Assembly: GCA_958295785.1 (NCBI GenBank)
Contig: OY282377.1
Coordinates: 2,880,385-2,944,384, forward strand
DNA length: 64,000 nucleotides
Source: an uncultured Latescibacterota bacterium
GTDB lineage: Bacteria; Latescibacterota; UBA2968
Direction: 5' to 3'
In this document: positions 26,725-37,601 of the stretch, piece by piece
How positions within the stretch are numbered: the first letter of the stretch is position 1
How the letters are laid out: each line of letters opens with the position of its first letter
Program-made: the position numbers and the translations under genes
Notes under the pieces: generated by a model
Seen by the model: the letters and a program-made list of their open reading frames with translations, nothing else
What the model was told of the DNA's origin: nothing
Databases searched by the model: none

Positions 26725-27444
26725 TTACGCCTTCCCCAAAACATTGCGTTGAATTTGAGAGATCTCGGCGATGCCTTGTTGGGCGAGGGCGATCAAGTGG
26801 TGCATCTGATCAAAGGTGAAGGGATGGCCTTCGGCTGTGCCTTGCACTTCGACAAAGTTGCCCTGACCGGTCATGACAATGTTCATATCGACTGCGGCGG
26901 TTGCGTCTTCGGCATAGCACAGGTCGAGCATGGGGGTGTTGTCGATGATGCCCACGCTGACTGCGGCAACCGAATCCCCGAGAGGGTCTTCGGTGATCGC
27001 GCCTTCATTTTTCAGCCGGTTGATGGCATCGACCACCGCGACATAAGCCCCTGAAATAGAGGCCGTGCGGGTGCCGGCGTCGGCTTGTAGCACATCGCAG
27101 TCAATCCACAGGGTGCGCGTGCCGAGTTTTTCGAGGTCGATCACAGCGCGCAGGGCGCGACCAATCAGGCGTTGGATTTCTTGGGTTCGGCCCTTGGTGC
27201 CGTTTGTTTCGCGCTGGCTACGCGTGTGGGTTGCACGGGGTAGCATGGCGTATTCCGCTGTGATCCAACCCGTGCCTTTGCCCGAGAGGAAACGGGGGAC
27301 GCGGTTTTCAAAACTCGCGGTGCAGATAACGTGCGTGTCGCCCATTTTGATTAAGGCAGATCCCTCGGCGTGTTTCATAAATCCGCGTTCAATGCTCACG
27401 GGCCGCAATTGATCGGCGCGGCGACCATCAATGCGCTGGTTCAT
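26725..27444 (-). CDS. rph: ribonuclease PH
   Basis: [22 protein letters not shown]...[18 protein letters not shown] is classic RNase PH sequence. Confidence 0.9.
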
Positions 27445-27490
27445 GAATGCTCCTTTCTGTCGGGCGGTATAGAGGTCGATAAGGGCGTTA

Positions 27491-28333
27491 TTACTTCAGA
27501 TAAATCCGCTCCGCGTTTTTGTGAAAGAGTTTTTCGCGCTCTGCCGCGTCGGCATGGGCGACGATTTCGCGCGCTATTCGCGCCCATGTTTTGAGATCGG
27601 ATCGCGTGTTGCAAACCGGCCAGTCGCTACCCCACACCACGCGATGCCAGCCGAAACTTTCGAGGCAGTGTTCAACATAAGGGCGAACCGCTTCAAGGGT
27701 GGCATTGCCCGGCGCGCAATAGGCCAGCACGCCAGAGATTTTGCACGCGACATTGGGAAGCGCGGCCAGTTGCGCGATCAGATCGCGCCAGGGATCCAGT
27801 GCGTTATTTGCAATATCGGGAACGCCGCAGTGGTCGAGGACGAATTGGACATTGGGGCACTTTCGCGCCAATGCGCGGGCAATGGGCAGTTGGCGGGCGA
27901 GGAAGCAGAGGTCAAAAGTGAGGTTGAATTTTTCGAGTAGGCGGATGTTTGCGGCAAAGTGATCCGATTGGGAGAGGGCGTCTGGCATGGTGTGCAAGAT
28001 GCGGCGGAGGCCGACGAGTTTGGGATGCTGGATGGATTCGAGATAGGCTTCAAATCCAACGGGGTTTTCGGGACGGCAGTTGGCGATGATGCCTTCGATG
28101 ATCGCATCGGGCTGTTCGGACAATTCGCAGACAAACCGGGTTTCGTCCCGCCAGTGGGGATCATCGGGCGAGGCTTCCATGAAAATGGTGCGCGCAATGC
28201 CACAACCTTCTGCGGCGACCAAATAATCCTCGATATGGAAGACATTGCCCTCGAGCGGCGCGAGCCCATCCGTCCAGGAATAGGGGTACTTGCGCGGATA
28301 GATCAGGTGTTGATGCGTGTCTAAAATGGGCAT
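27491..28333 (-). CDS. amidohydrolase-2 family metal-dependent hydrolase (TIM barrel)
   Basis: N-terminal [10 protein letters not shown] metal-binding motif. RBS GAGGAGA before the ATG at 28333. Confidence 0.7.
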
Positions 28334-28410
28334 GGGGTCTCCTCGGTGAATCGGTGGCGGACTCGATGTATTTCCCACCTTTGACAGAGCCTTGCCGTTT
28401 TACTGCTGGA

Positions 28411-31400
28411 TCAGAGACTGTGACGCTTATCCAGCAATATCTTTCTCAGTCGGTCAAAGGTGGAAGATCCGATGCCTGTGACCTGTTTGAGTTCGTCAAG
28501 TTGTTGAAATGGCCCGTGCTGTTTGCGGTAGGCCACGATGTTCGCCGCGATTTGAGGGGAAATGTCGAGTCGCTCCTCAAGGTTTTTTGCGGTTGCGCTA
28601 TTGAGGTATTGTAATTGTTCAGCACCCAAACCCCATATTCTGGCAAACAAGGAACCCACCAACCCAGGCACTGTCGGCTTTTCAGGCTGTTCAGCGTCGG
28701 TCGGGCTGTATTCCCCACGCAGAACATTCTGCAATCTCTGTCTCAGTAGCAGTAGGTCTCCGATGCCTTTGACCCGTCTGAGTTCGTCAAATTTTTGGAA
28801 TGGTCCGTTCTGCGTGCGGTAGGCCACAATTTTCGCCGCAATTTGAGGGGAAATAACGAGTCGCTCCTCAAGGTTTTTTGCGGTTGCGCTATTGATATAT
28901 CGCAAGACAATCTGTTCGGTCGGGCTGTATTCCCCACGCAGAACATTCCGCAATCTCTGTCTCAGTCGGTCAAAGGTGTAGGATCCGATGCCTCTGACCC
29001 GTTTGAGTTTGTCAAGTTGTTGAAATGGCCCGTGCTGTTTGCGGTAGGCCACAATTTTCGTCGCGATTTGAGGGGAAATGTCGAATCGCTCCTCAAGGTT
29101 TTTTGCGGTTTCACTATTGATATATCGCAAGGCAGTCTGTTCAAATTGTTCCGCGTCGGTCGGGATGTATTTCCCACCTTTGATAGAGCCTTGCCGTTTC
29201 ACTGTTGATCTGCTTGGCGGCGGCGACCCTTGTTCGGACTTTGGGGCAGGGGCAGATGGCGGACGGGTCACTCCTTTGCTACTCTGCGGTCGCAATGACC
29301 AAAAAACTTCATCAACCGCTTTGAGCATGTCTTTTTTGATTTCCTCCATCTTGCCCTTGATTGAGGTAAAATCCTTTTCTTGAGACTTTTTGATATTGTC
29401 AATTTTTTCTGATAGGGCATCCATTTCATCAGGATCGAGCTTGCTATTCTCAAGTACGTTTATATGATGACCGAGATCGTTGAGTCCTTTTCTCAGCAAC
29501 TTAGCGGTATTCTCGTCTTTGCGAATCGCATTCTCGTACATTGCAAAAACGCTTTTAATTTCCCCTTTCAATTCAGCCTCCAAATCGCCTTTCGGCTGGT
29601 TTTCGCTACGGAAAAAGTCATGCAAAGACACCCCATCCTCATCAAATAAGTATTCCTTATGGTGACGGGCACTGTACGCGCTGATACCCACAGGCTCAAT
29701 ACCCTCGTCCTCAAGCGTTTCCTTTACCTCATCCAAAATATCTTCCAACTCGCTTTCGGGCTTGAGATCCGCCTTGTTCAAAACCACATAAAATGGTAAT
29801 CCGTTCAGTTCCATACCTTTTATGAAATCCAGATCGCTCTGTGGGATGGTGCCGGTGGCGTCCAATCCAATCATCCAGATCAGGGCATCTCTGTCTTTTA
29901 GAACCTCGGCGGCGGTTTTCTTGTCCTGGTCGGTATTTCCCCCGGCCGGGTTGTAGCCCGGCGTGTCGATCAGGCAGATATGTTCCAAGCCCTTCATTAA
30001 AGGAACTTCCACAGTAATAGAAGGCATGAGGTCTTTGAGTTCAAAGGGAAATGTATCGACAAAATTGTGGGACAGTTGGCGGTAAAATGCCGGTGCGATA
30101 TCCACTGTGCCCCCATCACGGGAGAATCCCTTGATAGAGACCTCGGTATTGGAAATCACGAAAGAAGGGATAACGGTGGCGGGTTCGACTTTAACGGGCA
30201 TTTTCACGTCGGACTTGGTGATAAAGCTATTGACAAACTCGGACTTGCCGCTGCTGAAGCCCCCACCAATGGCGATGGATTTCTTGGTGAACGTATGGGG
30301 GAAAGCCACGAGCTCTTCCAAGCGTTTCTCGAGACTTTGCAATTTTTCCACGGCGGCAGCCTCCTCGGCCAGCGAGGACTCCTCATTGGCAAAGGCCATA
30401 AACCGCCCTTCGAAGAGTTCCTTAAATCTCTCGAATGCTTCATTTTCAGAACGTTTGGCGTTAAGCAGGTTGGAGACCAGTTCGTATTTCTGATCCAAAC
30501 TATCGTGCTTCTCGCTCAACTTATCGAAGTCTTGACGAGTTGCATCTAAATCGGATTTTGTGCGGGCATGTTCTTCACGCGACTCGGTCAAGGCTGTCTG
30601 TGTCTGATCGTGCTCGCCGCGCAACGCATTGAACTCAGCCGTTTTTGTAGCATGATTCTCGCGCTCCTCGTCCAAGGCCCTCGTCGTCTGATCGTGTTCC
30701 TCCAGCCACGCATTGAACTCAGCCGTTTTCGTAGCATGATTCTCGCGCTCCTCGTCCAAGGCCCTCGTCGTCTGGTCGTGTTCTTCCTGCAACTCATCGT
30801 ATTCTCGACGCACTTTGGGCCAATCTGTCTGCTTGTATTCCTCGTGCAACGCATTGTATTTTTTCTGTTCATCGCGCAAATCCGCCTTTGTTTGCTCGTG
30901 TTCTGTACGCGCCCCGTCCAAGGCGGTCGTCGTGCGCTCCAATTCCACTGTTGTCCGCTCGTGTTTTGCATGCCACTCATGGAGGTCATGCTGTGCCTTG
31001 TCTAAGGCGACTGCTACGCGCTCGTGTTCCGCACGCAGTTCGTCCAAGGCCCCGGTTGTGCGATTCAACGCCGTCGTTATCTGTTCGTGTTCTGCTTGCA
31101 ACTGCTCAACGCGATGCCGCGCCTCATCTAAATCGGCTGTTGTCTGATCATTCTTTTCCGTCAAGGCACCGTACTCTGTTTGCAACTGCTGAAAACGATG
31201 CCGCGATTTGTCTAAGGAGACCTTTGTTTGCTCGTGTTCCGCACGCGCCCCGTCCAAGGCCCCGGTTGTGCGATTCAACGCTGTTTTTGTCTGTTCGTTC
31301 TTTGCTTGCAACTGCTGAACGCGATGCCGCGCCTCATCTAAATCGGCTGTTGTCTGATCATTCTTTTCCGTCAGGGCACCGTACTCTGTTTGCAACTGCT

Positions 31401-31977
31401 GAAAACGATGCCGCGATTTGTCTAAGGAGACTGTTACGCGCTCGTGTTCCGCACGCAGTTCGTCCAAGGCCCCGGTTGTGCGATTCAACGCCGTCGTTAT
31501 CTGTTCGTGTTCTGCTTGCAACTGCTCAACGCGATGCCGCGCCTCATCTAAATCGGCTGTTGTCTGATCATTCTTTTCTGTCAGGGCACCGTACTCTGTT
31601 TGCAACTGCTGAAAACGATGCCGCGATTTGTCTAAAGAGACCTTTGTTTGCTCGTGTTCTGCACGCAGTTCGTCCAAGGCCCCGGTTGTGCGATTCAACG
31701 CTGTTTTTGTCTGTTCGTTCTTTGCTTGCAACTGCTGAAAGTTCTGCCGCACATTTGCCAAATTTTTGGTTGTTCGCTCGTATTCTCCACGCAACCGCTC
31801 GTGATCCTTTTCCAGTTTGTTGAGGGTGTGTTGCACCTCATTCAATTTGGCAGTTGTCCCTTCCTGTTTGTGCCGCGCCTCGTCCAAGTCGGCGGTTGCC
31901 CGCTCGTATGTTGCACGCAACTTCTGATAGACTGGCCGATTTTGAATAAATCTTTCCCAGATAGATTTCAGACTCAT
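28411..31977 (-). CDS. dynamin-like GTPase (DLP-C, 1188 aa): N-terminal ~500-aa tandem coiled-coil repeats, dynamin GTPase core, Pro/Ser linker, and three C-terminal ComEA-type HhH DNA-binding domains
   Basis: G1 GGGFSSGKSEFVNSF, G3 LIDTPGYN, G4 VLNKADL. C-terminus contains three copies of INSATAKNLEERLDISPQIAANIVAYRKQHGPFQQLDELKQVTGIGSSTFDRLR (ComEA/HHH_3-like). The start ATG overlaps the stop of the upstream gene (ATGA). Confidence 0.8.
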   Translation of the reverse strand: MSLKSIWERFIQNRPVYQKLRATYERATADLDEARHKQEGTTAKLNEVQHTLNKLEKDHERLRGEYERTTKNLANVRQNFQQLQAKNEQTKTALNRTTGALDELRAEHEQTKVSLDKSRHRFQQLQTEYGALTEKNDQTTADLDEARHRVEQLQAEHEQITTALNRTTGALDELRAEHERVTVSLDKSRHRFQQLQTEYGALTEKNDQTTADLDEARHRVQQLQAKNEQTKTALNRTTGALDGARAEHEQTKVSLDKSRHRFQQLQTEYGALTEKNDQTTADLDEARHRVEQLQAEHEQITTALNRTTGALDELRAEHERVAVALDKAQHDLHEWHAKHERTTVELERTTTALDGARTEHEQTKADLRDEQKKYNALHEEYKQTDWPKVRREYDELQEEHDQTTRALDEERENHATKTAEFNAWLEEHDQTTRALDEERENHATKTAEFNALRGEHDQTQTALTESREEHARTKSDLDATRQDFDKLSEKHDSLDQKYELVSNLLNAKRSENEAFERFKELFEGRFMAFANEESSLAEEAAAVEKLQSLEKRLEELVAFPHTFTKKSIAIGGGFSSGKSEFVNSFITKSDVKMPVKVEPATVIPSFVISNTEVSIKGFSRDGGTVDIAPAFYRQLSHNFVDTFPFELKDLMPSITVEVPLMKGLEHICLIDTPGYNPAGGNTDQDKKTAAEVLKDRDALIWMIGLDATGTIPQSDLDFIKGMELNGLPFYVVLNKADLKPESELEDILDEVKETLEDEGIEPVGISAYSARHHKEYLFDEDGVSLHDFFRSENQPKGDLEAELKGEIKSVFAMYENAIRKDENTAKLLRKGLNDLGHHINVLENSKLDPDEMDALSEKIDNIKKSQEKDFTSIKGKMEEIKKDMLKAVDEVFWSLRPQSSKGVTRPPSAPAPKSEQGSPPPSRSTVKRQGSIKGGKYIPTDAEQFEQTALRYINSETAKNLEERFDISPQIATKIVAYRKQHGPFQQLDKLKRVRGIGSYTFDRLRQRLRNVLRGEYSPTEQIVLRYINSATAKNLEERLVISPQIAAKIVAYRTQNGPFQKFDELRRVKGIGDLLLLRQRLQNVLRGEYSPTDAEQPEKPTVPGLVGSLFARIWGLGAEQLQYLNSATAKNLEERLDISPQIAANIVAYRKQHGPFQQLDELKQVTGIGSSTFDRLRKILLDKRHSL
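28440..29150 (-). repeat. three near-identical coding tandem repeats (~230 bp) encoding ComEA-like HhH domains; the middle copy is degenerate
   Basis: The nucleotide block TTGCGGTAGGCCAC(G/A)ATTTTCG.CGC.ATTTGAGGGGAAATGTCGA.TCGCTCCTCAAGGTTTTTTGCGGTT recurs at about 28520, 28800 and 29030. Confidence 0.7.
30560..31900 (-). repeat. coding tandem repeat array (~210-bp period, at least 6 units) encoding coiled-coil heptads of DLP-C
   Basis: Near-identical nucleotide units, for example GCTGAAAACGATGCCGCGATTTGTCTAAGGAGAC at about 31190, 31400 and 31610. Protein repeats LDKSRHRFQQLQTEYGALTEKNDQTTADLDEARHRVEQLQAEHEQ. Confidence 0.7.
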
Positions 31978-34175
31978 GGGTTCACCTCCATTTTTTTCAA
32001 TTCACCCTTGAGGCGGCTGATTCGCCTCAATTCCATTTCTTTCTTTTCAATGGATTCCTCAAGCGTGGTAAGTTCCTTTTCGATTTTTTTCAGAAGTTGA
32101 TCATCCAACCGAACTTCTTTCATCCTTGCGGCGAGAACTTTGGGGTACTCGTTTGCCTTTCTAGACAATTCACGGGAGAGATTGTCAAGGTAATTTTTCG
32201 CCTTATCAATAAATTCCTCCGCCGCATCATCCTCCAACACGCCTTGGGGTTTCAGGGAATCCGGCATTCGGCTTTTATACTCAAATTTTGGGATGGATAT
32301 GGAACTAATGGCGTCCCTGATTACCCGTCTGATCATCGAGGCTTCCAAACTCTCATCGCCAAAGTTGTCCCGCAAAATTTTGGCCATATCCCTGATGAGG
32401 TCGGTCCGCCAATCTCCCTTTTTGTCCTCTACTGTTTTGGTTATTGAATACACTAATTCTTCAGAAAACTTCGACAAGCTATGAGAAACAGCACCTGTGC
32501 GTATGGTAGGATAAGATACTTCCCTTTTAAATAGCCAGAAAAATCCCCATCTTTCTGTACGCATTCTCATTTCTTTCCCTTGATCTATATCCGATTCTGT
32601 ACTCTTTTTTTCGCCTTCGATTTTTCTCCGAAATTCCTCCGCCAAAGAGCGGCTGAGATTATCGACCGATTCCTCGTAACCCCACTTGATATCCGCTGAA
32701 GCATTGTAGAGGGCCTTTTCCAAGGCTTCGCGCTGTGCCTTAATTTTTTCAATATCCGTGCCCTCAATTTCGGACTGCCGCTCGTCGGCAAACGCGAGCA
32801 AGCCATCCTTCAAGGCACGCAAAGACTGGCGTTTTGCGTCAACATACTTCGTCTGCCTTTTTTGGATGATGTCGTCCTTTTTCGCGCGCACCTTCGCGAC
32901 AATATTTTGGATGGCCGAGATGTTGGACAACTTGTTCAAACTGATGCGCGACAAGTTCTCGTCCGCATCGGAAAAATAGTCTGGATAACCGGCTAGCAGA
33001 CTACCCCAAGCGTGCCGCATCCCCTCGTCCCACTCGCCCCGTTGCCCAAAGAGTTGCTTCAGACTTTCGCACATTCCCGACGAGTAAATGATCTTGCTTT
33101 GGCCTTCGAGCAACTGATCGTAGGTATTTCCCACCTCGGGATTGCTCTCTTTCAAATTTGTGATCACCTTGTTCAATTGGTCTCCAAGCACCCCGGTGAG
33201 ACTGTCCAGCACGCGATCCAACTGCCCGTCGTTCTCATCCTTCAGATGACCGAAAAGCTGGGTATCCGCCTGGGCCGCCACGACAAACAGTTCATGGATG
33301 CCTTCCTTGCTGGTGATTCGATCCATCAGTTCCAAATCCACATCATTCAAAAACTGCCCCGACGGGCTGAGGATCAACACCACATCGCATTGATTCAAGT
33401 GCTCTTGCGTCCGCGCCTCGCGGGACTGAACCGGATCGTTGAGGCCCGGCGTATCCACAATTTCTATGTCCTTCAGCTTCTCTTGGGAAAGCCGGAGGTT
33501 GACGCTCTTGGTAAAGGGCATGTATTTGCCCTTCGCGCCGACGTAATCATCCAACTTGTCGCCTAAGTCAGAAATACGGTCAAACTTGAGAAGGCGTTTT
33601 TCTTCCAAAGTCCTGATGGACAACCTGGTAGCATCCATTTTGGTGTATTGCTCATGTGCTGCCGAGAGTTCGACTTTCGCCCGCATCTCCCGATAGGCTT
33701 TGCTTTTTGCCAATTCCTCCGGGGATTTTCGGGATCGGGTTTGTCTCTGTCTTCCTTGTGCCAAGAATTTCCTGTATAGATCATCCCGTTGCCTGTTGTA
33801 CTCTTCGTACTGGGCCTTGATATTCTCAAAGTCCTCTTGGGTGAAAAATTCCACTTCTGCCGACGGGGTATCCCCATGCGAAAGCGTGGTCAAGGCCGCG
33901 GTCATCGGGGTGGCCGCCTTGGGGAGAATGCTTTGCCCGTCAAAGAGGAGGGCGTTCAGCAACGAGGATTTTCCGGATTTGACCCGCCCCACAATGCCGA
34001 TTTTCAGCAACCGGCCTTCATCGGCAATGGCCGCCAAATCCGCTTGCAAGTTCTTGCCCGTGGGAATGCTGTATTCCCGGCAGAGGCGTTGGGCCTCATC
34101 CCCGAGAAAGTCGTGGTAACGGCCCATGACTCGTTCCAACTCTTCCCTGAAAGTGACAATTCCGTTCTGGTTCAT
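31974..34175 (-). CDS. dynamin-like GTPase (DLP-B, 733 aa)
   Basis: G1 GRVKSGKSSLLNAL, G3 VDTPGLND, followed by a long alpha-helical stalk. RBS AAGGAGA. Its ATG overlaps the TGA of DLP-A. Confidence 0.8.
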   Translation of the reverse strand: MNQNGIVTFREELERVMGRYHDFLGDEAQRLCREYSIPTGKNLQADLAAIADEGRLLKIGIVGRVKSGKSSLLNALLFDGQSILPKAATPMTAALTTLSHGDTPSAEVEFFTQEDFENIKAQYEEYNRQRDDLYRKFLAQGRQRQTRSRKSPEELAKSKAYREMRAKVELSAAHEQYTKMDATRLSIRTLEEKRLLKFDRISDLGDKLDDYVGAKGKYMPFTKSVNLRLSQEKLKDIEIVDTPGLNDPVQSREARTQEHLNQCDVVLILSPSGQFLNDVDLELMDRITSKEGIHELFVVAAQADTQLFGHLKDENDGQLDRVLDSLTGVLGDQLNKVITNLKESNPEVGNTYDQLLEGQSKIIYSSGMCESLKQLFGQRGEWDEGMRHAWGSLLAGYPDYFSDADENLSRISLNKLSNISAIQNIVAKVRAKKDDIIQKRQTKYVDAKRQSLRALKDGLLAFADERQSEIEGTDIEKIKAQREALEKALYNASADIKWGYEESVDNLSRSLAEEFRRKIEGEKKSTESDIDQGKEMRMRTERWGFFWLFKREVSYPTIRTGAVSHSLSKFSEELVYSITKTVEDKKGDWRTDLIRDMAKILRDNFGDESLEASMIRRVIRDAISSISIPKFEYKSRMPDSLKPQGVLEDDAAEEFIDKAKNYLDNLSRELSRKANEYPKVLAARMKEVRLDDQLLKKIEKELTTLEESIEKKEMELRRISRLKGELKKMEVNP

Positions 34176-35902
34176 GTTCGTTCTCCTTGTTGTGCAAAAA
34201 GCACCGGCGTTGCCAGCAACCGGATGTTCTCTCGAATGCTGGTCAGATCCGCAATCGTTTGCCCAATGTCCTGAAGCGCGTCCTTCTTGGCCTGCTCGGC
34301 TTCGGCGATTTCGCTTTGTTTGGCCTTGATCTGCGAATCCAAAGCCACCGCGTTCTCATTGATGAGGCCGTTCACTTGATCCTCGAAATCTTTGGGCAGT
34401 TCGCTCCGCAGTTTGCTTTTGATGGACGGGATAACGGTTCCAATCAGTTGGTTGCGAATCTGCTCCTCCTGCCGCCGCTTTTGAAAGTAGCCAATAATGT
34501 CGGGCAGGAAGATGATGAAGAGTTCCAAAATTGGCATCACAAAACTGGTGGTAATGGCGAGCGTGGTGGTGAGAACGCGGTACAAATTCCGTCCGCCTTT
34601 GACTGCACCGCCAACCCCTTTGAGAATCGCACTTCCCTCAGAAAGAAGTTGTGGGGCACTGTACATTGCTTTTTCCAACCAATTTTCATTGCTCGTATAA
34701 GAGGAAAGAATGTGGTCAATGCCTTTGACGCTTCTGGACAGGTCTTCGACGATCTGTCTGTTCAACTGCTCCATTTCGGTTTTCACATGGCTCACGAGCG
34801 AAGAGCGCAGGATTTCCGACATGTGCCGCTGAAAAGCATCTTCGCCGCTGGACAGGGCGATGCCGGTCAATTCCTCTACGGCATTGTTCAGGTCCGCGCC
34901 CACGCGCTCCACAATGTCGTTGGCACGGGTCGTGGAATACCGCGAGCGGACGTCCCGAATCATAGCGTCCTTCTTTTGTTCCAAGTCTCGAATGCCCGCG
35001 GCGAGTTCGTCAATGGCCTCTTGGTTCTCGCTCTCGTCCTTTTTCAAGGAACTGATCCATGTGTTCAAGCTGCCGTCGATATCGAAGAAATGCCCCTCCA
35101 AGCTGGGGCGATAAAGCCGGGTGAAAAGCTCCTCTGGGTCAATGGCTCGAAACATTCTGTCCAGACTATCCCCGCCATCCTTGCCCACGGGAACGACCGC
35201 GTCGGCAAAGTCGAAATCGTCCTCGAGCCGATCTTGGATGTTCTGTGCGATTTCTTGAACCTCGGACTCCGAGCGCAAATTCGCCTTGCTCAAAAACACG
35301 GAAAACGGCTTGTCGAACTCGTCAAATTCGGACAACTGCCGATGGGCTGACTGCGTGACTGTGCCCTCCTCCACGCTGATCAAGACCGCATAGTGGCTCC
35401 CTCGGGCGAGGTACGTCAAAATGGCGCGATGGTGCAAATCCAGCGGCGAATCAAACCCCGGCATATCCACGAGCACGAGGGGCGCGATTCCCTTGAGTTG
35501 TTCGCTGTTGAGAAAGACCTCGACATATTGGTATTGCGCCGCCTTCTCTTTGATCGCGCCGATCTCCGCGATGGCGTAGCGATCCGACTCGCCATTTTTC
35601 ATGATGGCCTCAACGCGCTCGCTGTCGGAATAGCGCAACTCGGTTGCCAACGCGGTTTCCGGGGTGATGTTGACGGGCAAGTAATCGGACCCCAAAAACG
35701 AGTTGATCAACGTGCTTTTGCCCGAGCTGAAAGCCCCGACGACCGGCACGACCAACTCGGCCTCGGCAATATCCCGCTTCAACTCCTCTGCGGACTGGAT
35801 GTTTTTCCCAAGTTCTTCAAACACCCCCAAAGCACTCGTCCTATCCAATTCCGCCTTTATCCCATCCAAATAATCGCAAAACGCGCTCTGCGTCTGAAGC
35901 AT
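34172..35902 (-). CDS. dynamin-like GTPase (DLP-A, ~576 aa), first gene of the operon
   Basis: G1 GAFSSGKSTLINSFLG, G3 LVDMPGFD, G4 LSKANL. Start chosen at the ATG at 35902 behind RBS GGAGGGAG (MLQTQ...). Confidence 0.8.
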   Translation of the reverse strand: MLQTQSAFCDYLDGIKAELDRTSALGVFEELGKNIQSAEELKRDIAEAELVVPVVGAFSSGKSTLINSFLGSDYLPVNITPETALATELRYSDSERVEAIMKNGESDRYAIAEIGAIKEKAAQYQYVEVFLNSEQLKGIAPLVLVDMPGFDSPLDLHHRAILTYLARGSHYAVLISVEEGTVTQSAHRQLSEFDEFDKPFSVFLSKANLRSESEVQEIAQNIQDRLEDDFDFADAVVPVGKDGGDSLDRMFRAIDPEELFTRLYRPSLEGHFFDIDGSLNTWISSLKKDESENQEAIDELAAGIRDLEQKKDAMIRDVRSRYSTTRANDIVERVGADLNNAVEELTGIALSSGEDAFQRHMSEILRSSLVSHVKTEMEQLNRQIVEDLSRSVKGIDHILSSYTSNENWLEKAMYSAPQLLSEGSAILKGVGGAVKGGRNLYRVLTTTLAITTSFVMPILELFIIFLPDIIGYFQKRRQEEQIRNQLIGTVIPSIKSKLRSELPKDFEDQVNGLINENAVALDSQIKAKQSEIAEAEQAKKDALQDIGQTIADLTSIRENIRLLATPVLFAQQGERT

Positions 35903-36149
35903 GGCGACTCCCTCCAAAAAATGAAGCCCTCTCTGTCTCAAAAAAGGCCAATGGATCTGTCAAGTCATATTGCCAGTTCGTGAGCCTCCGATCCTTGATG
36001 ACCACGCGGCGAAAGGCGTCTATGGGAGGGGTATCGGTCACGGCATTGGCTTCGGTCACACGAAATTAAAAATCAGCTATCAGCCCCTGTCTATCTGAAA
36101 TGACGTTGCTCCAGCACATGCTTTGCCGACCGCTTGGGGCCTGGGCGGC

Positions 36150-36215
36150 TCTCTCGCGTCTTAGAAGTTGTCTTAAAACGAAAGATGACCCCTCCCCCGG
36201 CCCCTCCCCGCAACG
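36150..36215 (+). repeat. short intergenic repeat module of the 'CTAAGAAGC.GTCTTAAAACGAAAGATGACCCCTCCCCC' family
   Basis: Copies at 21030-21080 (+), 36395-36450 (-), 45785-45840 (-) and 55035-55085 (-). The last two begin exactly at the stop codons of the OMP gene and nadA. Confidence 0.6.
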
Positions 36216-36512
36216 GGGAGGGAGATGTTCTTCCACCTTGTATCTCGCCTTTTCGGGCGGGCACGGGGGCACCGCCCCTACGTTTCTATCCCGCATCTTT
36301 CTTGTAGGGAGATCTTGATTCCCCCCTTCCTTGTAGGCACAGGCGCACGCCGCAGGCATGGCGTAGCCATACCCTACAATGAGCGGAGCGAATAACGGGG
36401 GTTAGGGGGGTAGGTCCCGATAATTTTAAGATGGCTTCTTATATCTTCGGGCCGGCACGGGATCACACCCCTGCGTTACTGAATGACACCGCTTCAGCAT
36501 CTACCTCGCGTT

Positions 36513-37601
36513 TCATCTGCGTTCATCTGTGATTGCTTTTTGGGGCAACGGATTTTGCCGATGGGCTTCTTCCATCACGGCGATTTGCTTTCGCACCTGC
36601 GCCGGGGTGATGAGGAGTTGGCCGTTGTTTTTGAGCGCGTCATAGACGTTGTTGTAAAATCGTTCGGGGCCGCTTTCGGGCTTGGTCTTTTCTGTTTCGA
36701 GCGTCCACGTTTCTTCGACCCAGTCGAGTTCTTCGCGGGTATATTTTCTATCTACAGACCACGTCCACATCTCGTGCTTGGGCGCTCTTTCCGGATCAAA
36801 ATAACGCCATGTGAGCGCAGTCGCGCCGCCGGTCAGGCCGCCGCAGGTGCCGTCGACCGCGTACGTGTCGCGTTGCGGATAATGCAGGTAGTTGCTGACG
36901 ACAATGTCGATTTGGGGGGCCTGCCGGTCCGGGTCGTACAATGTGAGGGTGCAGTGATCATCCGCGTCGCCCCAAAAGGGATTGTTGCAGTCCATTCGGG
37001 CAAATACGTGCGGAGTGCGGTCAAAGCCAAACAGGCAGAGGGCCTGATCAACGGCGTGAGGCCCGGTGTTGAGCAAGCCGCCGCCCCAGTTTTCCTGACG
37101 GGTTTGCCAGTCCCAACGCCGCGCAAACCGGCCCCATGAGGATCGAATATAGACAATTTTGCCCAAAACGCCCGAGTTGATAATTTTTTGCATTTTGTCA
37201 AAAAAGGGTTGCAACCGGTTGTTCTGAAACGGGGCAAAGACGCGCTGGTTGTCTTTGGCTGCGCGCACGATGCGGTCGAATTGCGCCACGGTTTTGCAGG
37301 TGGGTTTTTCGCACACGACATGGCAGCCGGCGTTGAGGGCCGCAATGCTGGCAACCGGATGCAAGGGCTGGGGCAGGGCATTGACAAAGAGGTCGAATCC
37401 CTCGACTTTGATCATTTCCTCCCAGTCCCGATAGGCTTTGGCGCCAAATTGTTCGCGGGCATCGCGCCTCCGTTCGGACAACTGATCCGAAACCGCTACG
37501 ATTTTGAATTTGTCGGGCACTTGGCGCAGCCAGTTGGCGTGAATATTATACCCACTGCGGCCCTGCCCCCCAATGGCAACGCGAATGATGTTGTCAGACA
37601 T
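36513..37601 (-). CDS. Gfo/Idh/MocA family oxidoreductase
   Basis: N-terminal Rossmann motif IRVAIGGQGRSG, plus the EKP motif and the C-terminal dimerisation domain. RBS AAGGAAG at the ATG at 37601. Confidence 0.85.
   Translation of the reverse strand: MSDNIIRVAIGGQGRSGYNIHANWLRQVPDKFKIVAVSDQLSERRRDAREQFGAKAYRDWEEMIKVEGFDLFVNALPQPLHPVASIAALNAGCHVVCEKPTCKTVAQFDRIVRAAKDNQRVFAPFQNNRLQPFFDKMQKIINSGVLGKIVYIRSSWGRFARRWDWQTRQENWGGGLLNTGPHAVDQALCLFGFDRTPHVFARMDCNNPFWGDADDHCTLTLYDPDRQAPQIDIVVSNYLHYPQRDTYAVDGTCGGLTGGATALTWRYFDPERAPKHEMWTWSVDRKYTREELDWVEETWTLETEKTKPESGPERFYNNVYDALKNNGQLLITPAQVRKQIAVMEEAHRQNPLPQKAITDERR

Follow-up and report, generated by a model that had tools for sequence, protein, structure and literature searches.

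A dynamin-like GTPase from a Latescibacterota bacterium ends in a recently duplicated array of three ComEA-type helix-hairpin-helix domains

What is a ComEA-type helix-hairpin-helix (HhH) domain doing at the end of a dynamin-like GTPase? The question is raised by a 64,000-nt stretch of DNA (hereafter the window, whose numbering is used for all positions) from an uncultured Latescibacterota bacterium (assembly GCA_958295785.1, contig OY282377.1, positions 2,880,385 to 2,944,384 of the forward strand), in which three genes for dynamin-like proteins (DLPs), designated DLP1, DLP2 and DLP3, lie on the minus strand. The last 244 residues of DLP3 consist of three repeats of about 70 aa each (copies 1 to 3), which an initial annotation had matched to the ComEA HhH pattern. 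Both the assignment of this tail to the HHH_3/ComEA type and its location were confirmed. Moreover, the HhH array was made by recent intragenic duplication and is still being reshuffled by unequal recombination.

To begin with the family of the tail, the whole of DLP3 scored 146.3 bits (E = 2.8e-43) over three stretches against HHH_3 (PF12836, cut-off of 27 bits), while copies 1, 2 and 3 scanned singly scored 54.2 bits (1.6e-14), 53.4 bits (2.8e-14) and 62.7 bits (3.6e-17), respectively, with the alignment of copy 1 covering profile positions 8-65. TIGR00426, the ComEA helix-hairpin-helix repeat region, reached 113-121 bits on the tail (cut-off of 53.1), and these matches are far beyond what chance would give. 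Among structures of the Protein Data Bank (PDB), the sequence of copy 3 matched EEPD1 (9yi2, 2.8e-12), ComEA (8dss, 3.5e-10, and 8dfk, 5e-8) and the C-terminal domain of KIF22 (2edu, 1e-6), in addition to Tex, TEFM and 2duy. The AlphaFold2 (AF2) model of the tail, obtained from a 39-sequence alignment, had a predicted local distance difference test (pLDDT) score of 83.6, with most of each copy above 90, and showed each copy as a compact unit in which a loop connects two HhH motifs. Its closest Foldseek matches were KIF22 (2edu, at the top), ComEA 8dss_B (root-mean-square deviation (rmsd) of 1.3 Å over 54 columns), TEFM and Tex, with ComEA 2duy superposing at 1.9 Å over 56 columns and PsbU appearing lower in the list. 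Family membership was thus supported by profile, sequence and fold. As the predicted template modelling (pTM) score of this model was 0.44, the prediction indicates three independent domains on flexible linkers, like beads on a string, and the array as a whole is attached by a disordered Pro/Ser-rich linker. The linker between copies 2 and 3 (28627-28698, PTVPGLVGSLFARIWGLGA) could form an amphipathic helix, AF2 confidence there being <50.

Two further placements were considered and rejected. PsbU and GspK, the HhH relatives that do not bind DNA, scored far lower than HHH_3, and the repeats were accordingly not placed in a non-DNA-binding family. Membership of full-length ComEA was discarded because the comEA model TIGR01259 gave 124.8-130.7 bits on DLP3, below its cut-off of 152.35, because the location is wrong and because the key lysine is missing. 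The consensus quoted in the initial annotation held for the second hairpin, which is G-I-G in all three copies, but not for the first, given there as G-I-G and reading D-I-S, V-I-S and D-I-S in copies 1, 2 and 3; degenerate first hairpins are also present in accepted members of HHH_3, namely KIF22 (RIG) and EEPD1 (GLS). Likewise, the DNA repeats behind the three domains are real, although calling them near-identical was a slight overstatement: codon-aligned identities were 86% between copies 1 and 2, 85% between copies 1 and 3 and 77% between copies 2 and 3, and, ungapped over 186 nt, copies 1 and 2 were 90% and 74% identical to copy 3, which was taken as the reference.

The middle copy had been described as having lost its GIG...TF hairpin. 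Its sequence, GIGDLLLLRQRLQ, was exactly as first quoted, but the G-I-G is intact and only the start of the next helix has changed. Where copy 1 has the codons GGA TCC TAC ACC TTT GAC CGA CTG (G-S-Y-T-F-D-R-L), copy 2 has GGA GAC CTA CTG CTA CTG (G-D-L-L-L-L), so that SYTFDRL is replaced by DLLLL, two residues shorter, through a net in-frame change of -6 nt affecting the N-terminal turn of the last helix. The new stretch holds a (CTACTG)x2 micro-repeat, and two mutational paths fit equally well, a 12-nt deletion with a CTACTG micro-duplication or a compensated +1/-7 frameshift. The HHH_3 score of copy 2 is about equal to that of copy 1; its alignment covers positions 8-55 of the profile and ends there, at 55 of 65, two residues beyond the second hairpin, and AF2 still builds the last helix (model residues 137-149, pLDDT 64-75). 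Moreover, L002, a contig that is syntenic with the window and has about 97% DNA identity with it, carries the same DLLLL allele at a different array position; because it is shared, the allele is stably inherited, and neither faulty assembly nor some very recent mishap accounts for it. The earlier proposal of a recent internal deletion or a recombination scar was therefore right in part: the lesion being an in-frame complex indel, a deletion is a reasonable description, and signatures of unequal crossover are present, but the event is not a one-off. Far from being a dead copy, copy 2 represents a stable variant allele, in frame and still able to fold, whose last helix is leucine-rich.

The arrangement of the repeats differs between close relatives. 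In the window, the linker motif (L) is followed by the SYTF copy, the DLLLL copy, a PEKP linker, the SSTF copy, the stop codon and L-prime, while in L002 L is followed by the DLLLL copy, a GIS/SYTF copy with a different tail and the SSTF copy, and the coiled coil has one 210-nt unit fewer than in the window. It should be considered that L002 is a noisy long-read-style assembly with frameshifts even in housekeeping genes, of which only the large-scale structure was used. In P0191, whose core is 90% identical, three tandem L linkers, two HhH copies and a coiled coil of about 190 aa were found, and L003 and L004, 96-97% identical to each other, differ in the number of coiled-coil units. The linker that separates copies 2 and 3 starts with PEKP, in agreement with the ancestral linker of the relatives L004, P0001 and P0005. 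Furthermore, L-prime is a 58-nt copy of L located 799 nt from the original and about 20 nt before the ATG of the amidohydrolase gene (28333); it reads AVKRQGSVKGGKYI in another frame, was found in L002 too and was probably left behind at the junction of a 799-nt tandem duplication. No rearrangement seen in the window disrupts the reading frame. Unequal recombination has its hot spots at the two ends of DLP3, and strains vary in the length of the coiled-coil arm, as shown by unit numbers that set L002 apart from the window and L003 apart from L004, and that are different in P0191 as well.

The protein that carries the array is dynamin-like, as had been first noted. Its GTPase motifs G1 (GGFSSGKS), G3 (DTPG) and G4 (NKAD) are intact, and the P-loop, DxPG and NKAD are invariant across 16 DLP3 relatives. 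Dynamin_N (cut-off of 27 bits) scored 28.7 bits on the core alone and 23.7 bits, below the cut-off, on the full protein, and PF00350 is listed in the Pfam annotation of most DLP3 homologues. A profile of the core matched the Campylobacter DLP (5owv_C, E = 1.2e-10), which was the only match used from the PDB profile search with alignment A1, as this search was swamped by designed ankyrin repeat proteins (DARPins) because ankyrin and HhH tail columns had entered the profile. In the AF2 model of the core (pLDDT 80, pTM 0.71), helices 17-62 pack with helices 303-399, and its Foldseek matches were the bacterial dynamin-like protein (BDLP) 2j69 (6.8e-12), mini-mitofusin-1 5gnr (2.3e-11), IniA 6j73 (3.8e-11) and Cj-DLP 5owv_C (2.6e-10). 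Neither trunk nor paddle was present in this model, and no hydrophobic segment was found in DLP3, the maximum Kyte-Doolittle hydropathy (KD) of 1.0 corresponding to the tail linker. DLP3 is thus a minimal dynamin-like protein made of a GTPase and one helical bundle, like mini-MFN1 constructs. The core bears lineage-specific extensions at its two ends. N-terminal to it there is a coiled coil of about 495 aa, in which Tandem Repeats Finder (TRF) detected a 210-nt repeat (31020-31736, 3.4 copies, 90%) and an 84-nt repeat (30602-30797, 2.3 copies, 89%), and for which all profile matches were of coiled-coil or SMC-like type.

The core of DLP3 defines a large family, with 2122 representatives at E <=1e-3 in a library clustered at 50%, and around this near-constant core the tails vary. 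HhH domains were found in 13 of the 246 family proteins retrieved, with one or two HhH each and some of them beside IF2_N; all 13 belong to a Latescibacterota-like clade with 52-90% core identity. Most of these cases have a single HhH, while two are present in P0003, L004, L005 and P0191. Other tails of the family consist of IF2_N before HhH, long ankyrin arrays, ankyrin repeats plus an FGE-sulfatase domain or, in Fusobacteriaceae, a transmembrane (TM) segment followed by MORN-like repeats, and the DLP3 of Pseudomonas has no tail. The tail of DLP3 is a swappable module of which there are several interchangeable kinds. The initial annotation had called a ComEA-type domain on a membrane-remodelling GTPase unexpected. 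In the literature searched, no paper joined bacterial dynamin-like proteins with helix-hairpin-helix or ComEA domains, the listed co-occurrences of 'dynamin-like' and 'ComEA' looked incidental by title and abstract, and the Pseudomonas literature mentioning DLPs was not about the three-dynamin operon. No description of the fusion of a dynamin-like GTPase with a ComEA-type domain was thus found there, tandem ComEA-like arrays being already known; the fusion is less of an oddity, however, in that it is conserved in the 13 relatives and represents one of several tails.

Some additional features of these tails were observed. Among L005, L001 (P0003), P0009, P0046 and P0048, some have one or two IF2_N domains (PF04760) between the linker and the HhH, and others a Cys-rich stalk insert (YQCRCG...YQCRGCG). 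In the Latescibacterota genomes L006-L012, the sister DLP3 carries long ankyrin arrays, one of them with the FGE-sulfatase domain; two of these genomes have two ankyrin-type operons each, and in L007-L010 an ORF (open reading frame) of 439 aa comes after the ankyrin-type DLP3. On an E. coli IncF plasmid (L057, NZ_CP148580.1, 3872-11475), an operon with a short DLP3 is followed by a separate 830-aa CFI-box-CTERM domain-containing protein, which may be the variable tail as a gene of its own.

DLP3 is the last gene of an operon (Table 1) in which both junctions, DLP1/DLP2 and DLP2/DLP3, are 4-nt overlaps. For DLP1, an ATG at 35902 is a likelier start than the TTG, and its residues 456-487 (KD 2.2) form the only strongly hydrophobic segment among the three proteins. 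The sequence of DLP2 matched Cj-DLP (5owv_A, 2.5e-12) and the Nostoc BDLP (2j68, 4e-8). The order DLP1-DLP2-DLP3 was found in about 40 genome loci of many phyla, including Ca. Latescibacterota, Pseudomonas, Dechloromonas, Burkholderia, Marinobacter, Rahnella, Moraxella, Treponema, Fusobacteriaceae, Acetobacterium and Bacteroidales, as well as on plasmids of P. aeruginosa and E. coli. The closest genomes were metagenome-assembled genomes of Ca. Latescibacterota, the core of L004 being 78% identical. Moreover, the G+C content was lower in the dynamin operon (0.44-0.53 over 28400-34000) than in the flanking genes (0.55-0.58), which, together with the patchy and plasmid-borne distribution, suggests that the operon may have been horizontally acquired. 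A promoter and terminator scan of 27300-36700 gave the same counts as shuffled sequence and was thus uninformative on the operon boundaries. The sole tRNA gene of the window is a tRNA-Thr (TGT) at 42538-42613 on the minus strand.

Table 1. Features of the dynamin-like operon and of the DLP3 gene, in window coordinates
Feature	Position	Strand	Basis and remarks
DLP1, first gene of the operon, 589 aa (TTG start)	34172..35941	-	Dynamin_N 67.6 bits; G1 GAFSSGKS, G3 DMPG
DLP2, second gene, 733 aa	31974..34175	-	Dynamin_N 79.1 bits
DLP3, gene with the HhH tail	28411..31977	-	Single ORF, 1188 aa plus stop; domain content from profile scans
DLP3 N-terminal coiled-coil extension, aa 1-496	30490..31977	-	TRF repeats; coiled-coil/SMC-like profile matches only
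DLP3 conserved core, aa 497-898, GTPase and one helical bundle	29284..30489	-	Dynamin_N 28.7 bits, AF2, Foldseek
DLP3 core motif G1	30241-30264	-	
DLP3 core motif G3	29956-29967	-	
DLP3 core motif G4	29767-29778	-	
Pro/Ser-rich linker, ending in the motif VKRQGSIKGGKYIPTDAEQ (L)	29146..29283	-	Translation
HhH copy 1, aa 945-1020	28918-29145	-	D-I-S hairpin 1; G-I-G hairpin 2, then SYTFDRL; net charge +8
HhH copy 2, aa 1021-1093	28699-28917	-	V-I-S hairpin 1; G-I-G hairpin 2, then DLLLL; net charge +6
Variant codons of copy 2 (DLLLL)	28744-28758	-	
Linker between HhH copies 2 and 3, DAEQPEKPTVPGLVGSLFARIWGLGA	28627..28698	-	Most hydrophobic stretch of DLP3, KD 1.0; AF2 pLDDT <50
HhH copy 3, aa 1118-1188	28414-28626	-	D-I-S hairpin 1; G-I-G hairpin 2, then SSTFDRL; net charge +3
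DLP3 stop codon	28411-28413	-	
L-prime, non-coding remnant of the linker motif L, directly 3' of the stop	28351..28408	-	84% identity to 29150-29207

In Proteobacteria, a WYL-WCX regulator was found directly upstream of the operon in six loci, whose homologues have 37-45% core identity, and the neighbours included BREX BrxL/PglZ, GmrSD, ResIII, integrases, insertion sequence (IS) elements such as IS30, and a gene with an EH-signature domain beside a DEAD/DEAH helicase gene, a pair that reads as ZorC/ZorD-like. Loci with such a context were L015, L019, L021, L023, L025, L030, L031, L037 and L056. Anti-phage activity is proven for another dynamin system, which has two genes (bioRxiv 10.1101/2022.05.11.491447). 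In PADLOC, DLP1 gave weak matches to LeoA/LeoBC (34-35 bits), while DLP2 and DLP3 gave coiled-coil noise only (JetC, LmuB) and no dynamin defence model. The operon was accordingly rejected as Eleos, with no Leo match in DLP2 or DLP3 and only about 35 bits in DLP1. As a weaker inference, suggested by these distant homologues, which also occur on plasmids, and hinted at by the lower G+C content of the window operon, the operon may serve in membrane surveillance or in defence against incoming DNA.

As for the function of the tail, it may act as a multivalent binder of nucleic acids (DNA or RNA) in the cytoplasm, a reading to which we give an even chance because the DNA-contact lysine of ComEA and the first hairpin are not conserved. 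The initial annotation was right as to the ComEA/HHH_3 family, while the DNA binding itself had been taken for granted. The cytoplasmic location is indicated by the intact GTPase motifs, by the lack of any signal peptide or TM segment when these were looked for in DLP3, and by several HhH-bearing relatives that begin with a TM helix followed by RKKRRG, an arrangement that places their tails in the cytoplasm. Copies 1, 2 and 3 have net charges of +8, +6 and +3, respectively, with isoelectric points of 9.6-10.7, in comparison with -2 for the DNA-binding domains of true ComEA proteins. Furthermore, the positions aligned with K197 and K199 of B. subtilis ComEA (sites from PMC9747964) are Arg in copies 1 and 3, and across the 23 HhH domains collected from the DLP3 family the second hairpin is always GIG or GIS, while the first varies (GIG, GIS, SIS, SIC, DIS, VIS and LRS).

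In the mechanism proposed, the array would work as a sequence-independent tether, most likely for double-stranded DNA, in which weak contacts of each domain, made by the second hairpin and the Arg/Lys-rich helices, would add up by avidity. The three proteins would form one complex with DLP3 as the adaptor subunit, as inferred from the translational coupling and from the precedent of Cj-DLP1/2 (PMC6104087). The hydrophobic membrane paddle is that of DLP1, DLP3 having none, and DNA would be coupled to a membrane-bound, GTP-driven complex, by analogy with KIF22, a kinesin that holds chromosome arms by this type of domain. Extended to the whole operon, this would give a machine coupling DNA to GTP-driven membrane remodelling: DLP1 and DLP2 would grip and deform the inner membrane, DLP3 would fish for DNA by its HhH tail on an adjustable coiled-coil arm, incoming phage or plasmid DNA would be caught at entry and sequestered or extruded, or else the nucleoid would be anchored and partitioned, and HhH, ankyrin, MORN and IF2_N tails would retarget the same engine to other cargos. 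Taken with all these details, such a machine is unlikely.

Several observations weigh against a nucleic-acid tether and against its extension to defence. In ComEA, a lysine after hairpin 1 (K63 in V. cholerae, K164 in B. subtilis, K166 in G. stearothermophilus) is needed for DNA binding (PMC3879209, PMC9747964). In V. cholerae, K63A lowered transformation about 250-fold, K62/63A abolished DNA binding in electrophoretic mobility shift assays, the hairpin-1 changes G60V and G60E abolished function, and variants without either HhH motif lost DNA binding (PMC3879209); in B. subtilis, K164A lowered transformation more than 100-fold, and the conservation of K164 was rated by its authors as at least equal to that of the HhH signature itself (PMC9747964). 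The position of this lysine (G-I/V-G-P-x-K-A) is Ile in all three copies of the window, according to HMMER alignments with 8dss and 8dfk, and I, V or T in all 23 domains of the family; the first Gly of hairpin 1 is replaced by D, V and D in copies 1, 2 and 3, and the position of B. subtilis K193 is occupied by Y, L and S. Moreover, sister DLP3 proteins carry ankyrin or MORN-like repeats, which are protein-binding, at the same position as the tail, PsbU and GspK of the HHH_3 clan bind proteins and not DNA, and ComE1 binds fibronectin via its HhH motifs (PMC2601033). The values of dN/dS between the HhH copies were 0.66-1.03, from few sites and with relaxed and diversifying selection not separable, and in L003 a TAC to TAG change (GGK*IPT; 2328-2372, vs. 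9309-9353 in L004) lies directly before two otherwise intact in-frame HhH copies; it is due to a sequencing error or else marks a naturally tail-less variant. Finally, the neighbours of the window operon are metabolic (genes for a sulfatase, an MFS transporter, RNase PH, an amidohydrolase and a GFO/IDH/MocA oxidoreductase) and none is a defence gene, neither a WYL regulator nor a defence-island context turned up here or in those Latescibacterota loci that were examined, and no PADLOC match of Eleos grade was obtained for the window operon.

Much of this would be expected if the array were an adaptor for a protein or another ligand, the tail slot serving for target recognition and the DNA contacts having been lost. 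Such an adaptor, possible but on balance rather unlikely, would account for the Ile at the lysine position and the degenerate first hairpin of every copy (PMC3879209, PMC9747964), for the ankyrin, MORN-like and FGE-sulfatase tails at the same place in sister proteins and for the DLLLL patch exposed by copy 2. It would not, however, need the strong positive charge found on every copy. The second hairpin is kept as GIG or GIS throughout the family; furthermore, the best profile, sequence and fold matches are the DNA or RNA binders ComEA, KIF22, Tex and EEPD1, while the profiles of the protein-binding PsbU and GspK score far lower.

The basic array might instead bind anionic membrane lipids and so replace the paddle absent from DLP3, which would agree with net charges of +3 to +8, with the leucine patch of copy 2 and with the amphipathic hydrophobic linker GLVGSLFARIWGLG between copies 2 and 3. 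This is quite improbable, as no HhH or HHH_3 domain is known to bind lipid, the hydrophobic stretch is missing from the corresponding linkers of L002, L004 and P0191, relatives with an N-terminal TM anchor still have HhH domains, and DLP1 brings a paddle to the complex. We consider similarly improbable that the tail is a drifting, largely dispensable repeat under relaxed selection that is heading for loss. Besides the dN/dS values, drift would explain at least two independent losses of the hairpin-1 Gly (to Asp in copies 1 and 3 and to Val in copy 2) when compared with the GIS of P0191 and L002, the changes of copy number and order in L002 (about 97% DNA identity) and P0191 (90% core protein identity), the stop codon of L003 and the tail-less DLP3 of Pseudomonas. 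On the other hand, none of the indels shifts the reading frame, the ORF is intact over its 1188 aa, every copy scores more than 53 bits and folds with high confidence, HhH tails are kept down to 52% core identity, and the HhH copies after the stop of L003 are otherwise intact, which makes that stop recent or a sequencing error. Lastly, an assembly artefact behind the triple array or the odd middle copy is very hard to sustain: repeats with 77-90% identity are difficult to assemble and L002 is noisy, with frameshifts throughout, but the ORF of the window is uninterrupted, L002 independently has three copies and the DLLLL allele, and two-copy arrays occur independently in L004, P0003 and P0191.

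Returning to the nucleic-acid tether, the systems closest to it were compared. ComEA (B. subtilis 8DFK, G. stearothermophilus 8DSS, T. thermophilus 2DUY and V. cholerae) belongs to the same HHH_3/TIGR00426 family as the DLP3 tail and shares with it the atypical two-HhH fold without connector helix (rmsd of 1.3-1.9 Å), the AYR..GPF core and the second G-I-G. However, ComEA is a secreted or membrane-anchored periplasmic receptor, whereas the tail of DLP3 is cytoplasmic and fused to a GTPase, is much more basic and has Ile in place of K63/K164/K166 and D/V-I-S in its first hairpin. KIF22 (Kid) has the same architecture of a mechanochemical NTPase, a coiled coil and a C-terminal ComEA-type HhH (2EDU), and its tail binds DNA, holding chromosome arms. 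It differs in being a eukaryotic kinesin ATPase that acts on microtubules with a single HhH, and its homology with DLP3 is limited to the tail. As a case of DNA tethered to a force generator, it is the best functional analogy.

Among dynamin-like proteins, the best matches of DLP2 and of the DLP3 core were Campylobacter Cj-DLP1/2 (5OWV), Nostoc BDLP (2J68/2J69) and mycobacterial IniA (6J73). The organisation of partner DLPs in an operon is shared with the paired bacterial DLPs (PMC6104087), which have two genes instead of three and whose solved proteins have no nucleic-acid-type domain, while DLP3 lacks their trunk and paddle, thus resembling mini-MFN1. LeoABC/'Dynamins' (Eleos) is likewise a multi-gene dynamin-like operon, located in defence islands and requiring its GTPase (bioRxiv 10.1101/2022.05.11.491447), and the proteobacterial homologues of the three-dynamin operon likewise have defence genes around them, but the gene number is different and the Leo match is weak and restricted to DLP1. 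In E. coli, the dynamin-like GTPase CrfC (YjdA/RdcA) is tied to DNA through nucleoid partition (PMC6374313); it lacks HhH domains, its link to DNA is indirect, through nucleoid-associated proteins and the beta-clamp, and homology is demonstrated for the dynamin fold only. Finally, Bacteroidota 'ComEA family DNA-binding proteins' (P0186, Hymenobacter) and human EEPD1 (9YI2) have, like DLP3, two or three consecutive HHH_3 domains, with degenerate hairpins in some cases (HPYI, GLS and GVT), and the AYRKQHGPF motif in common. Unlike DLP3, neither has a GTPase, the Bacteroidota proteins being stand-alone with an N-terminal membrane anchor and EEPD1 having its HhH domains attached to an EEP phosphoesterase domain.

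Membrane remodelling is the activity for which bacterial DLPs are known. Here, within a conserved lineage, a DLP subunit bears a domain of the nucleic-acid type, and the third subunit of a widespread operon behaves like a holder into which various binding modules are fitted. The locus also offers a clear example from nature of fast change in copy number and order, involving both a coiled-coil arm and a domain array, among strains about 97% identical in DNA. If the HhH tail does bind DNA, its soluble 250 aa would provide an easily testable handle, and the finding would directly show that some dynamins of bacteria work at junctions between DNA and membrane, such as those that may be formed during phage DNA entry, nucleoid anchoring or the production of DNA-containing vesicles.

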